From Eledone cirrhosa (Eukaryota): 64,000 nt of DNA. The stretch is taken from the NCBI GenBank assembly GCA_964016885.1, contig OZ024740.1:91946001-92010000 (forward strand), in the 5' to 3' direction. The notes under the pieces were generated by a model. That model worked only from the letters and a program-made list of their open reading frames with translations. It did not search any database and had not been told where the DNA came from. The position numbers and the translations under genes were made by a program. This document shows, piece by piece, positions 6,301-16,500 of the stretch. The first letter of the stretch is position 1. Each line of letters opens with the position of its first letter.

Positions 6301-6372
6301 AGAAGACCATACGCTATTGTTTTAAAGTACCGACATTGTCGCTTACTTAAATTTTCGGCAGACTGGGGGAAA

Positions 6373-6419
6373 TAAGTTGACAGCTCTGTTTCGTACTTGT
6401 TGGTACTTATCAAAACTCA
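6373..6419 (-). ncRNA. Type I hammerhead ribozyme, U3-A8 core variant (family A)
   Basis: TGAGTT-TTGATAA-GTAC caacaa GTAC-GAAA-CAG ag CTG-TC-AACTTA: stems I, II and III pair; GUC cleavage triplet. Confidence 0.8.
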
Positions 6420-6660
6420 CTACTCAATGTCGGTACTTTAAAACGATAGCGTATGGTCTTCAAAATGATTTTAATTAAGCATACTGTGTATTGAAAAATA
6501 CACTATATATACATTCATATACATATCGCTATTTCGGAGCACCATCTCTAATTTTCAATGTCTGCTGGGCCAGCGACCACTCTGTAAAATCAGTTCCTGA
6601 GTGTTACTGGAATTCTATAAGTATCCAACACACATAATTTTTGGCAGACAGGGTGAGTAG

Positions 6661-6707
6661 TGAGTTTTGATAAGTACCAAAAAGTATGAAACAGAGCTGT
6701 CAACTTA
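6661..6707 (+). ncRNA. Type I hammerhead ribozyme, U3-A8 core variant (family A)
   Basis: TGAGTT-TTGATAA-GTAC caaaaa GTAT-GAAA-CAGagCTG-TC-AACTTA. Confidence 0.75.
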
Positions 6708-7033
6708 TCTCCCCCATTCTGTCGATAATTTAAGTATGCGCCAGTGTCGCTAATTTAAAACAATAGTGTATTGCAAAATGCACTAAATATATGTTCATAT
6801 ATATATATCGGTATTTCGGAGCACCAATTCTAATTGTTATATCCGAGACAAACCTACATTTGGCGCCAAATCAATTTTTAATATTCACATGACCTCTACC
6901 CATCAATCAATATTGTTTTGACCACAATCATTTTTTCATAAATCTGGAGCAACTTTTTTTTACATAAAGCAGGTAGAATTTTCAATACTAATCAGATTAG
7001 AGCAAACATCACGGGCGCTCTATCTCAAAATTA

Positions 7034-7069
7034 TTTTTGAAAAGCATTAGAAATGCGAAACCGGTAAAA
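7034..7069 (+). ncRNA. Minimal type I hammerhead, U3-A8 variant, palindromic stem III (family C, element approx. 7005-7182)
   Basis: TTT-TTGAAAA-GCATT aga AATGC-GAAA-CCGG-TA-AAA. Related copies near 23209-23246 (+) and 61090-61125 (-, stem II GCAG/CTGC). Confidence 0.7.
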
Positions 7070-7211
7070 CTTAAAACCAAAACTGAATACTAACCAATAC
7101 AATTACTAATTTTTACTTATTCCTAATTAAACGATTTTTCACTGGGAACAATTTGTCAGCATTTTCTTTTCCTTTTATCAATATATATATATATATATAT
7201 ATATATATATA

Positions 7212-11960: not shown

Positions 11961-12200
11961 ATATACATATGTATATACACACTCACTCGCACACACACAC
12001 ACACATACACACACACACACACACACACACACACACACGCACACACACACATATACATACACACACATACACGCACACATACACACACACACACACACAT
12101 ACACACACACACACACACACACACACACACACACACACACACACACATATATATATATATATATATATATATATATATATATATATATATATATATGTAT

Positions 12201-12670
12201 GCATGTAAAAGGTATGCTCAGTATTTATACTTTGAGCTTATTAACGAGAGGGTATTAATATGAGTATCAAACTCTGCCTTTCTTTTAAATGTCGGCTCCT
12301 TACTTTGGTGAGCTTACAATTTCACTGAATTTAGGCTATTATTTCTAGCCGATCCAAACATATGACATAGATATTAGGTAACTTATTACCTCATCTTGTA
12401 TTTAGTTACCTACTTCTTTAGGTGTTTGTCGCTTTTAATCTTCTCTCCCGCTGACGAAATACCTACGGATTATCTGGTACAAACACAATGTTGTAGGCGA
12501 AACTTATTATATCTCTAATTTGTCCGGGAGATTGATAGTTATTGAAACGCTTAGTAGTTTTTAACTTGTATTTTCTGTTTATTTCATATCATAAATCCGT
12601 CAAAGAAACGTGGTCTTTCAACCCTTGCAATTTTAAACACACAATGTAGTGTGTAATTTTCTATATGTAT
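12201..12670 (+). mobile_element. Non-coding HHR element family M (approx. 470 nt) between (TA)n tracts
   Basis: Bulged hairpin at 12216-12237, HHR at 12444-12531, no long ORF, (TA)n on both sides. Confidence 0.65.
12444..12531 (+). ncRNA. Type I hammerhead ribozyme (family M)
   Basis: TCTCCCG-CTGACGA-..CCTAC....GTAGG-C-GAAA-C..ATTA tatctc TAAT..G-TC-CGGGAGA: 7-bp stem I, GUC triplet. Confidence 0.75.
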
Positions 12671-14236
12671 TATATATGTATATATATATATATATATATA
12701 TATATATATATATATATATATATATATATATATATATATATATATATATATATATATATATATATATATATATATATATATATATATATGTATATATATA
12801 TATATATATACATATATATATATATATATACACATATATATATTTATATATGCGTGTGCGTGTGTATATATGTATGTGTGTGTGTGCGTGTGTGTGCGTG
12901 CGTATGTATGTGTGCGTATGCGCCATACTGGCTGAGTTCTATATTCGTGAAAATATAGAACTCAGTGAAAATTCCACATTTTGAAATCACCTAAAATACC
13001 GTGTTTTTTCATACAGTGGTCTTCCTCTACATTTATTATTTGTCGGGTATCAAGATGGGTTAGAACTGTTAGATTTAATATCGGTGCAACAAGCGCTAGA
13101 AAGCACACCCCAACAACCCTAGTTCTAATTTGTGCATCACCTGTTTTGGATGTGCAATTGCCTGATTGCATAACATCTGCTAATAATTCCCTATTTTCTG
13201 CACATTGCAGTTTGAATTGTTTTGGTTAAAATATAGAACAGAAACGGAAACCATCCAGGAACATCGAGATGCAATTTTACTACTGAGACCCTATTGATTG
13301 ATTTAGTGGGTGAGTAATGGAAAGCGATCACTGGAATAACATCAGTCACCTTCTTAAAACCAGTAGTTATTATTCTATTAATTTTAACAATATATAAATT
13401 TCGGTAATTCATAGATGCCCTGCTGTGAAATTTAATTCCTCATATATTCCCTTATAGCCACACATGACACTCTTTTTTTCATATAATATTGAATTCAAAC
13501 GACAATCAATTCGTTATTGTACATACCAGTTTGTATTAAATTTTGTTTTATTTAACTTGTGCGCACTGTCGCTGATTTTCGTTGCCATTAAAAAATTGCC
13601 CACGAAAATGTTCCGATACTTAAGGCAACTTGTTTTGAAGGCGAACCACCTGAAGACATCGATATTTCTAGAACACATAACTGCCTCCGTTTTAACGGTC
13701 TTAACTATTTTAATAAGTAGATATTTTATTTCGAAATCCTTTCAGAATAATGATCAATTTTAAATGAGAGGAAACTCTCAGACACTGTTCATCCATATAT
13801 TAGGAAGGTATACTTCTCATTGTTTCATTTTTATTTCTTATTCTATTATTCTAGGTTATATAAATACTTGATGGTGAAAAACTATGCCAGTTACACATAC
13901 TAGTCCCGCGCCACTCAGAGAAGAACTATTTCTATTCTTAGCTCTCTACTGGTTTGCTAAGTCATGTAAGATTTCTATGATTCATGTAAGTGCTAGGTAT
14001 GTATCCATCTCCTTTGGCTTATTAGGAACGGCTTTTTACTCATTATTACATGTACTAATCTGCTCAGTTATAAGGAAATCAATCCAAGTGCACGAATCGT
14101 ATTCGAATTGCTGCAATATTGCGTTTTACAAACGTATTTATTGATAACCGCTTTATATCATACGTTATGAAATATTATACGAAACATAAATATATGCAAT
14201 GCTATCCGAAGGCCCAACGTATTTTGTTTGACTTAC

Positions 14237-14309
14237 CTCCCAGATGGAAGAGACAGTAAAGTTAAATTTCAAAGCGTTCAGTTTCTTAGAAAATAAAATT
14301 TCCGTCAAC
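14237..14309 (-). other. Possible 73-nt host-gene exon
   Basis: ttatttattcattcag|...GAG|gtaagt consensus sites; open frame LTEILFSKKLNALKFNFTVSSIWE; family not recognised. Confidence 0.3.
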
Positions 14310-15679
14310 CTGAATGAATAAATAATTCATATATCCGAGAGTTATTTCAGAAATATGATACCGACATTCGTGTTTCTAAATCATTTTCAGAGATTTGTAT
14401 TATTTTGCATTATGATTAGTTCTATATATATATATGTAATGTTGAAGAATACATATTATATTTCCAAGCTGTTTTGTTAGGGAATATGCTTTCAGAATCA
14501 TTTTAATTTTACTCAAATGTAAGTTGAATGAATAATATAAATATCTTCATGAGACTATCTATAATACAATATCAGAAATGTGACTGTTAGTTTGCAGCAT
14601 TGCATTTTGTGCAATTTGTGCAATTAGACTTCATCGTTGGCTGTGAATATATTTCATTTTTTAAATAATTATTTCGTATTTTTTTTTATTGTCATACTCT
14701 GCATGAGGAAGTTGGATTAGGAGAATTGTTAGGGCATCATGCACATGCCATGAGCAATTCTTTTACGAAGTTCTAATTTCTCAGATCCAGTTCTCCTCGG
14801 GTCAACTTTGCTTCTTCTTTTCGTTTCGTTAAAATGCAAGTACTAGAGAGGAGGATATAATCTATTTCCCCTCTGCTTCATTATGATCAGATGCCACAAG
14901 TAGGGAGAATTATACACTACATAATGACAATTGAAGTGATATTTAATGTAAAGGAAGACAGATGTTAAATTTTAGAATGTGAGATACAACTCTCTGCTAT
15001 GTACCGTTCCTATCATTTTGTTTAAATTTAAAATGAGGAAAGATTGGTTTTTTCTTGCAAGAATTTAAAAGAATTCATATTATATTACGTGCACAGGAGT
15101 TTACTAGAAGAAATTATATTCAGACAAAACCCGAAATCCATTTCTCTTCATCAGTTCTTAGTTTAATCTAATTTAAATCAAATCTATCCATTGGAAACGT
15201 TGCTGTAATGATATATTCAAAAAGTATGCATAGGCTACGTTTCTGGAGACTGAAAGTGAGAGAGCTAATATAGCTTCATAAAAGATAAATAAAAGAGTAG
15301 ATGAATTTAATGCGAACGCAGATGCAAAATATAGCAACATTATTGAAATATGCATATTGTAAGCCGGCATGGACTTATGCATAAATATTATCAAGCATGC
15401 AAGCTATAATTATCATAACAATTTCCATGTGATACATTATTACAAGTGTCCATAATTACATATTTACAGTCTGATTGTGTTTTAACTATGTACAGTCTCG
15501 CTCTACGTGTGGGAACTTCAGACATAAGGATATATTACGCTCAATCCCAGAAGAGTTAAAGACAAATAATTCTTCGGAGAAAATAATCTGATATATTATA
15601 TTTTTAAAAAGTCAGTTATTTTAGAAACAAACAACATAATATCAAACCATTCATGAAAGTTCTCAAACTTATATATGTA

Positions 15680-16500
15680 TTAGAATTTGTGCTCTTAAAT
15701 AGCGATATGTATAGTGTATTTTGCAATACACTGCATGCTTAATTAAAAGCATTTTGAAGACCTTACGCTATTGTTTTAAAGTAGTGACTATGTCACTTCC
15801 TTCAGTTTTCAACAAACAAAGGGAGATAAGCTGACAGATCTCTGTTTCATGCTGCTGGTATTACTTAGAGCCTAGCACTCCCCTTGTCTGTTGAAAATTA
15901 TGAATGTTGGATTCTTATAGACTTCCAGTAATAATCAGGAACTGATTATACAGAGCGGTTGCCAGTCTATAAGAATCCAATATTCATAATTTTCAACAAG
16001 CAACGGGAGTGCTAAGCTCTGAGGAATAGCAACAGTATGAAACAGAGATATGTCAGCTTATCACCCTTTGTTTGTTGAAAAAAAGAAGTAAGTGACATAT
16101 TCACTACTTTAAAACAATAGCGTAAGGTCTTCAAAATGCTTTTAATTAAGCATACAGTGTATTGCAAAATACCCTATATATATATATATTCATATATATA
16201 TATCGCTATTTCAGAGCACCGATTCTAATTTTCAATTTTTGCTGGACCGTCAACCGCTCTGTATCATCATTTCCTGATTATTACTGGAATTCTATAAGAA
16301 TCCAACATTCATAATTTTCAACAAACAAGGGGAGTGCTAAGCTCTAAGGATTACCATAAGTATAAAACAGAGATATGTGACCTTATCTCCCTTTGTTTGT
16401 TGAAAAAAGAAGTAATTGACATAGTCACTACTTTAAAACAATAGCATAAGGTCTTGAAAATGCTTTTAATTAAGCATACAGTGTATTGCAAAATACACTA
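15680..16500. mobile_element. HHR family A: one inverted copy plus approx. 1.6 tandem units (period 325 nt)
   Basis: CTATAAGAATCC recurs at 15967 and 16292; 15680-15960 is the reverse complement; three HHR motifs, one with an intact core. Confidence 0.85.
16013..16060 (+). ncRNA. Type I hammerhead ribozyme, canonical C3-G8 core (family A)
   Basis: TAAGCT-CTGAGGA-ATA..TAT-GAAA-CA gagata TG-TC-AGCTTA, with stem I extended by TTTTCAACAAG/TTTGTTGAAAA. Confidence 0.75.

Follow-up and report, generated by a model that had tools for sequence, protein, structure and literature searches.

The 64,000-nt stretch of Eledone cirrhosa DNA analyzed here (assembly GCA_964016885.1, contig OZ024740.1, positions 91,946,001 to 92,010,000; hereafter the window) contains copies of a short repeat, family A, that is likely a non-autonomous retrozyme: an RNA predicted to cleave itself, to be closed into circles by a host ligase and to be copied, probably by a Penelope-like element (PLE), into TA microsatellites, (TA)n. 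By class, family A is an animal non-LTR (long terminal repeat) retrozyme; the class is known already, and the family is an added member. A preliminary description, made from the letters of the window alone, had proposed a retrozyme-like unit, perhaps mobilized by a PLE; the first proposal holds up and the second is supported. The unit is non-coding, about 318 nt long and 31-35% GC (over 15679-16513), with a type-I hammerhead motif under compensatory selection and a stable predicted circular fold, and its insertion footprints support mobilization by a PLE. The existence of the family, its copy number, its non-coding nature, the conserved core with its compensatory changes and the anatomy of its insertions are all directly visible in the genome.

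Genome-wide searches identify family A as an interspersed repeat whose units have a median length of 318 nt (range 310-326; 19 monomers, each taken between successive cleavage sites). In the 3.0-Gb genome there are 2006 exact matches to a 42-mer of the unit and 0 to its reversed control, and two unit queries return 1876 and 1949 first-look candidates (40 scored per query). The copies are scattered over many chromosomes, in arrays of 1 to ∼6 units. Among 120 open reading frames (ORFs; at least 110 aa) from 88 family A loci, there is no reverse transcriptase (RT) or endonuclease continuous with a unit. Family A is a short non-coding tandem unit without an LTR, within the 170-400 nt range of animal non-LTR retrozymes (no dedicated search was made for a primer-binding site, PBS, or a polypurine tract, PPT).

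As the preliminary description had stated, each unit carries one type-I hammerhead motif and an internal TA run. In the majority sequence of one subfamily, the 5' strand of helix I (UAAGCU) is followed by the core CUGAGGA, helix II (AUAC-CAACA-GUAU), GAAA, helix III (CAG-AGAU-CUG), U, C, the cleavage site and the 3' strand of helix I (AGCUUA). Beyond a small internal loop, helix I continues as a ∼20-bp stem closing the rest of the unit. Most copies in an unbiased sample, fetched via the conserved 42-mer, read UUGAUAA, with U3 and A8 replacing C3 and G8. In an alignment of 120 copies (121 segments minus one with an internal duplication), all 13 scored core positions are intact in 80, comprising 49 U3-A8 and 31 C3-G8 forms; the criterion, CUGANGA...GAAA...UH or its U3-A8 form, is a motif-level test. 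One predicted type-I hammerhead per unit, with its core conserved in these 80 copies, agrees with what defines animal non-LTR retrozymes.

The hammerhead and stem I covary well beyond controls. The test used a structure of 36 pairs defined by us, the 120 sequences, 500 shuffles and control structures with partners slid by 1-3 columns. Pairing cells amount to 91.4%, against 86.8% in shuffles and 40-48% with slid partners, and cells changed on both sides number 329, against 130 +/- 14.5, a count reached by none of the 500 shuffles. The covariation score is 0.269, against 0.181 in shuffles and 0.07-0.10 with slid partners. At eleven pairs, at least 8 sequences each carry an alternative Watson-Crick pair; four of these positions lie in distal stem I, three in helix II and one beside the core in helix I, and the core pair 3-8 (UA 62, CG 47, UG 1, other 9) is another. 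Helices I, II and III all covary strongly, as does the core pair (C3-G8 versus U3-A8), and the covariation of stem I between subfamilies reported earlier is reproduced. The counts refer to sequences and not to independent events, which are few because the changes distinguish a handful of subfamilies; the changes are nevertheless spread over many different pairs. The retention of the hammerhead and the 26-bp stem I by compensatory changes across subfamilies argues for selection on master copies.

The palindrome of helix III is likewise preserved by paired changes, as CAGAGCUCUG, CAGGGCCCUG and CAAGGCCUUG. Where helix III would have to close a 2-nt loop, the pair is AU in 70 sequences, GC in 8, GU in 3 and other in 3. 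Such a pair is impossible within one hairpin, so helix III is likely intermolecular, with two ribozymes of one longer transcript pairing mutually.

Structural modeling of the unit as a circle points to a stable, highly self-paired RNA, as in animal non-LTR retrozymes. At -75.9 kcal/mol, the fold of the window monomer (16055-16379) is far more stable than its shuffles (-47.0 +/- 5.4; z -5.35). Among 12 monomers folded as circles, 9 reach z values of -4.9 to -8.0 against dinucleotide shuffles, with 55-66% of bases paired, while three decayed units of one array give -1.3 to -3.0. The AGTGAC/GTCACT and AGTGTATT-GCAA-AATACACT hairpins of the preliminary description are both present in the window copies, as is the internal TA run.

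The second line of evidence is the anatomy of the insertions, which consist of arms with fixed 3' ends. Among 81 non-redundant loci, 50 hold head-to-head arms, 0 tail-to-tail arms and 31 a single orientation. The end motif occurs 156 times, continuing into the next unit in 98 cases and called terminal in 58; about 5 of the latter are diverged read-throughs, and 48 of the 58 are followed within 4 nt by at least 4 TA repeats. No poly(A) is found at family A ends, which are ...TAAT in (TA)n. Arm ends, 127 in all, fall mainly on two sites: 44 on ...TTCTAAT (plus 0 to 8 nt; the tailed site) and 51 on a point exactly 26 nt upstream of it, where the internal TA run stops (the short site); 16 are nearby and 16 elsewhere. 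The 50 head-to-head pairs comprise 28 that join a short to a tailed arm, one that joins two short arms and 21 with another end type; pairs of two tailed arms, of which arm frequencies predict ∼7, number 0. The 26-nt tail motif is absent within 250 nt of all 58 short arms, so the short end is no alignment artefact.

Mapping with phase-free queries finds the 5' ends scattered throughout the unit, 2 of 138 falling at the cleavage site. Of the 138 arms, 79 are longer than one unit (>320 nt; median 354 nt, maximum 1807 nt). The spread of the 5' ends and the arms longer than one unit imply templates continuous across the cleavage site. The insertions thus bear a PLE-type footprint: 5' truncation, partial tandem, head-to-head inverted copy, a single tail and a microsatellite target. 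Separately, an apparent pile-up of 5' ends at the cleavage site was rejected as a query-start artefact, as it disappeared with phase-free trimer queries.

This footprint closely parallels published accounts of PLEs. PLE insertions are truncated on the 5' side and partly tandem, carry an inverted 5'-truncated copy at their 5' end and have a 30-40-bp tail at one end (PMC8557442). Naiad and Neptune PLEs target (TA)n (PMC8557442), and two internal RT start sites bracket the PLE tail in vitro (Frangieh et al. 2024, PMC11167929). Family A shares the truncation, tandems, inverted copy, single tail, (TA)n target and two start sites (PMC8557442, PMC11167929). Unlike these PLEs, it has no ORF, its tail measures 26 nt instead of 30-40, and its short site is the internal TA run (PMC8557442).

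Two further kinds of locus were noted. At L003, L005 and L060, C3-G8 and U3-A8 subfamily units stand side by side, which suggests either that independent insertions hit one microsatellite repeatedly or that template switching took place between RNAs. At L086:979-1582 (G000 C1, ∼56.08 Mb), a tandem of 163-nt units, matching an internal stretch of family A that excludes the hammerhead, terminates at the usual ...TTCTAAT site beside (TA)n and may be a deletion derivative that stayed mobile.

Family A behaves like a true PLE of the same genome. That element, given the working name PLE-N (loci L122 and L123), encodes an RT followed by a C-terminal GIY-YIG domain. Ahead of the endonuclease lies a Cys-rich KCxxxNCGTC stretch resembling the CX2-5CxxC linker tied to (TA)n targeting by Craig et al. 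(PMC8557442). Its pseudo-LTRs (pLTRs) are 1065 nt long and 97.8% identical, and each carries a U3-A8 minimal hammerhead. PLE-N has the 3' end ...CTCACTTTCTAAT, a (TA)n target and two start sites. The ...CTTTCTAAT end recurs in 29 of 29 further copies (at most 3 mismatches), with at least 5 AT repeats following at once in 23 and AT-rich sequence in the remaining 6. All 13 adjacent head-to-head pairs combine an arm that stops at the end site with one that stops 63-70 nt upstream. Only 42 first-look candidates occur in the genome, many of them 94-98% identical to the query. PLE-N and family A have in common the end heptamer TTCTAAT (...CUUUCUAAU in PLE-N) and the rare U3-A8 core variant. PLE-N is the best candidate helper for family A, and the one candidate family found; the link, a short shared end motif together with a shared core variant, is suggestive.

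Most of the PLE-N 3'-region copies (L132-L155) are only ∼220 nt long, with 5' ends concentrated, in both arms, 212-224 nt ahead of the query's end. These short copies may reflect a preferred stop or a short non-autonomous derivative.

In the mechanism we infer, self-cleavage, a circular RNA and a helper element act in succession. Copies longer than one unit would be transcribed, and two hammerheads would pair via the palindromic helix III and cut after GUC, probably in dimer form, as the motif and its covariation suggest. By analogy with other animal retrozymes (PMC7229834), the 318-nt monomers would then be closed into circles by a host tRNA ligase. The flanks point to a PLE endonuclease that would nick both strands of a TA microsatellite. 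Reverse transcription would have two starting points, each used once: ...UUCUAAU and a position 26 nt upstream where the internal (UA)n stops, a run that could pair with the TA end of the target. Such two-start priming resembles the twin priming of LINE-1. Both cDNAs would extend variably, often by more than one turn, before head-to-head joining; the resulting anatomy is observed, and the process is the proposed explanation. A more specific version of this model is possible but doubtful: one PLE particle would copy a single ribozyme circle from both nicked strands of the microsatellite, starting at ...UUCUAAU and, via (UA)n-target pairing, 26 nt upstream, with the internal TA run as docking site and the young, low-copy PLE-N as helper.

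Several results weigh against the retrozyme interpretation or against the tie to PLE-N. The core is broken in 40 of the 120 aligned copies and in three of the six window hammerheads, the other three being intact. Rfam hammerhead models give 0 matches in the window at the gathering threshold. The HH9 model scores 21-28 bits on four consensus-like U3-A8 loci, against a gathering value of 52, and two C3-G8 loci yield nothing at E <= 1. A scan by E-value threshold returns only sub-threshold HH9 matches amid many microsatellite-driven microRNA false hits. With Rfam family membership lacking, identification of the hammerhead rests on motif and covariation. The 67 pairs of one minimum-free-energy fold show no covariation beyond controls on 30 full monomers (score 0.038 versus 0.037 in shuffles, 129 of 500 shuffles being as high), and one pair alone shifts from UA to CG, in three sequences. 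RNAalifold, applied to 30 full monomers, gives a weak consensus of -4.71 kcal/mol, having missed stem I because subfamily indels shift the alignment. The strong structural covariation claimed in the preliminary description is therefore retained for the hammerhead and stem I and withdrawn for the other hairpins. Outside these parts the unit is simply conserved, and its modeled structure is plausible. As for the insertions, the 16 arm ends found elsewhere and the 21 pairs with another end type fall outside the two-site scheme. As for PLE-N, its 1065-nt pLTR has no BLAST similarity to the family A unit outside TA runs. The other hammerhead families of the window end in ...TAAT or ...TTAT before (TA)n, so that only the 'TTC' of the heptamer is specific, and U3-A8 also occurs in unrelated PLEs (PMC4209133). 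The endonuclease loci inspected are 35 of >10,000 (30 with 1.5 kb on either side and 5 of 10 kb). Finally, the templates may have been uncleaved multimers or religated circles, both of which the data fit equally, and units of the same locus are mutual nearest relatives in 23 of 73 cases, above chance and under half.

These last two points suit an account in which linear read-through transcripts are the templates of family A, a short repeat dependent on a PLE, with a hammerhead that only trims transcripts or is a relic, no circular RNA, and tandem arms that arise as those of PLE pLTRs do. Fixed internal RT start sites require no circle. The autonomous PLE-N shows the same two-site head-to-head pattern without being circles, arms over one unit are equally expected from multimeric linear templates, and the hammerhead-less 163-nt derivative still forms a tandem ending at the usual site. 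This account is nonetheless unlikely. Compensatory changes across subfamilies have maintained the hammerhead and the 26-bp stem I, shuffles of the circular monomer fold far less stably than the monomer itself, and in coral, mussel and axolotl retrozymes of like size build up as circles (PMC7229834). A retrozyme copied by way of circular RNA remains the favored interpretation.

It is very unlikely that the unit is merely the pLTR, or a solo fragment, of a coding PLE. In favor of this origin, hammerheads occur in PLE pLTRs, which also form partial tandems and inverted copies (PMC4209133, PMC8557442), and retrozymes are PLE derivatives related to pLTRs according to Li et al. (10.64898/2026.07.22.740005). 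In addition, a GIY-YIG ORF lies within 1.5 kb of family A at 4 of 30 unbiased loci, and the PLE copies inspected are a small share of the genome's total (10,597 first-look GIY-YIG candidates, 150 of 150 scored ones lying above the cut-off). However, each of the four nearby ORFs belongs to a separate insertion that shares the microsatellite but differs in element type or orientation. Family A units abut directly at ∼318 nt with no internal region between them in the 81 non-redundant loci, and in this sample 0 of 81 loci have two copies flanking an RT plus GIY-YIG ORF. Family A is absent from 29 of 30 sampled endonuclease loci, and the sole exception (L092) holds an independent head-to-head insertion 650 nt downstream. 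None of the 35 inspected endonuclease loci has a family A unit as its own end; a looser hammerhead descriptor finds motifs in L100, L121, L122 and L123, and a stricter one finds none in the 30 short loci. The dissimilarity of the PLE-N pLTR to the unit also speaks against a pLTR origin. One case named in the preliminary description as a refutation, a unit that is simply the pLTR of a coding element, was looked for and does not occur in the sampled loci.

Hammerhead-bearing repeats of a SINE-like (short interspersed nuclear element) or satellite kind include Schistosoma Sm-alpha. That family A is satellite DNA or a SINE-like repeat with a chance hammerhead-like string, spread by unequal crossing-over or by LINE (long interspersed nuclear element) machinery, is barely credible: such hammerhead-bearing satellites and SINE-like repeats are known (PMC4209133), no Rfam model exceeds its threshold and a LINE-like RT is present in the window, but the copies lie on many chromosomes in arrays of at most ∼6 units with a longest arm of 1807 nt, ARAGORN finds 0 tRNA genes and no tRNA-like part in family A, poly(A) ends are absent, the ends in (TA)n are precise with head-to-head arms prevailing 50:0 over tail-to-tail ones, and eleven base pairs carry compensatory changes in at least 8 sequences each.

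Comparison with known systems places family A beside the animal non-LTR retrozymes (PMC7229834; 350-390-bp Mytilus and 220-240-bp Acropora repeats). It shares with them a short non-coding unit in the 170-400 nt range, one type-I hammerhead per unit, short tandems, many dispersed copies, a GC content below 50%, a highly paired predicted circular fold and coexistence with autonomous PLEs bearing atypical hammerheads (PMC7229834). Unlike them, family A is known here from DNA alone, is mostly U3-A8 and mostly forms 1-2 units head-to-head instead of long arrays, and its sequence is unrelated to theirs as far as can be told (PMC7229834). The two-site fixed 3' ends in (TA)n are a family A feature for which the available text of PMC7229834 offers no description.

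The minimal hammerheads of PLE pLTRs (PMC4209133) resemble that of family A in their short helix III and in a palindromic loop implying a dimeric ribozyme. Family A has a more canonical layout, with a helix II of 4 bp versus 7-8 bp and, unlike the minimal type, a 4-6 bp helix I that leads through an internal loop into a long closing stem (PMC4209133). The PLE-type helix II (7-8 bp) occurs in the other hammerhead families of the window. Dimeric pairing has already been proposed for most animal type-I hammerheads, and U3-A8 core covariation was previously reported for Schistosoma Cercyon-type PLE hammerheads (PMC4209133). The LTR retrozymes of plants (PMC4918200) are similarly non-autonomous and hammerhead-bearing, and are thought to propagate through circular RNA. 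They carry type-III hammerheads in LTRs, a PBS and a PPT, with 4-bp target duplications (PMC7229834), and measure 600-1000 nt (PMC5680766). These traits are not those of family A, for which the PBS and PPT had no dedicated search. Among the literature matches listed for cephalopod or octopus retrozymes and hammerhead ribozymes, none describes such an element in its title or the opening of its abstract.

The value of family A beyond its class assignment lies in the one-tail-per-pair statistic, the parallel with an autonomous PLE and the C3-G8/U3-A8 series. The dependence of animal retrozymes on PLEs has so far been argued from co-occurrence and pLTR similarity. Family A adds evidence at the level of insertions, namely the same two-start, one-tail, head-to-head footprint as an autonomous PLE of the same genome. 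The candidate helper makes the mobilization step testable with purified PLE protein and family A RNA. If the proposed pairing is true, family A and PLE-N would form a ready-made natural system for retrozyme mobilization. A further asset is the family's natural set of compensatory hammerhead variants, with C3-G8 and U3-A8 cores, three versions of helix II and three of the palindromic helix III.

Within the window, BLAST matches to 15941-16290 are confined to 6302-6835, 11696-11960 and 15679-16513, the three loci given in the preliminary description (Table 1). Its 325-nt tandem unit needs qualification: 325 nt is the sole measurable period, from a single true tandem pair (16055-16379), but loci 1 and 3 consist of inverted and forward arms set head-to-head, and Tandem Repeats Finder reports no 325-nt array at the family A loci. 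The ...ATTCTAAT end that it ascribed to three copies is indeed found at 6834, 11959 and 15679(-). Four sequencing runs compared with the unit (X1, X2, X3 and X5) consist of contigs resembling genomic DNA at low coverage, and X5 leaves part of the unit uncovered.

Table 1. Family A features in the window
Feature	Position	Strand	Remarks
Locus 1, inverted arm	6302..6425	-	Joined head-to-head to the 6425..6835 arm
Intact U3-A8 hammerhead core, locus 1 inverted arm	6379-6413	-	
Locus 1, forward arm	6425..6835	+	∼1.3 units
Intact U3-A8 hammerhead core, locus 1 forward arm	6667-6701	+	Predicted cleavage after C6701
Locus 2, single 5'-truncated unit	11696..11960	+	Flanked by TA and CA microsatellites
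Locus 3, inverted arm	15679..15975	-	Ends at the tailed site, minus-strand ATTCTAAT, end at 15679
Degenerate hammerhead core (CUAAGUA), locus 3 inverted arm	15833-15868	-	
Locus 3, forward arm	15966..16516	+	∼1.7 units
First hammerhead, locus 3 forward arm	16019-16054	+	Intact C3-G8, predicted cleavage after C16054
Second hammerhead, locus 3 forward arm	16344-16379	+	Dead: G5A, G12A, C17G
One full monomer, cleavage site to cleavage site	16055..16379	+	325 nt, predicted RNA unit

At locus 1, the inverted arm is truncated on its 3' side, at neither fixed end site, and a weak Rfam HH9 match lies at 6362-6427(-) (20.4 bits, E 0.43). The forward arm contains a copy of the end motif ending at 6552, misses ∼37 nt near 6766 and terminates 1 nt past the ...ATTCTAAT of the tailed site. 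Locus 2 also terminates 1 nt past this motif, and its hammerhead is a remnant (∼11753-11789(+)) without the CUGA box. Locus 3 pairs a tailed arm (15679) with a short one: its forward arm has an internal end motif ending at 16229 and halts in the internal TA run (∼16513), followed by CA/TA/GA microsatellites.

Two other hammerhead families occur in the window. The second family, found at 7615-7665(-) and 55758-55808(-) and as a degenerate copy at ∼11481-11530(+), has CUGAUGA, a long helix II (GGACGUACUG...CAGUACCUC) and almost no helix III, which is the PLE 'minimal' type. Two of its copies terminate in ...GAATTAAT followed by (TA)n; the third continues past that point, contains GCTTCTAAT and lies directly upstream of family A locus 2. 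The third family forms an inverted head-to-head pair ∼140 nt apart, at 47282-47336(+) and 47091-47145(-), with CUGAUGA, a helix II with a 30-nt loop and one arm ending in ...TATATTAT before (TA)n.

The remaining elements are of other types. A tblastn search with an ORF fragment from L125, which by eye resembles the GIY-YIG-bearing ORFs of L067 and L071, matches the window at 9570-10217(-), 10396-10548(-), 27520-28035(+) and 46124-46276(-) (E 1e-6 to 6e-35); these matches are probably remnants of another PLE family. Broken LINE-like retrotransposon ORFs at 40015-41696(-) (RVT_1, E 1.9e-14) do not belong to a Penelope-like element. Tandem Repeats Finder reports repeats at 62112-62908 (424 nt, 1.9 copies, 96% matches) and 45406-45667 (139 nt, 1.9 copies), both unrelated to family A by BLAST. 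A weak PIF1-like helicase match at 63168-63548(+) (E 7.7e-05) and a Pif1 2B domain match at L086:2358-3038(-) (E 1.7e-13) may be Helitron-type remnants.

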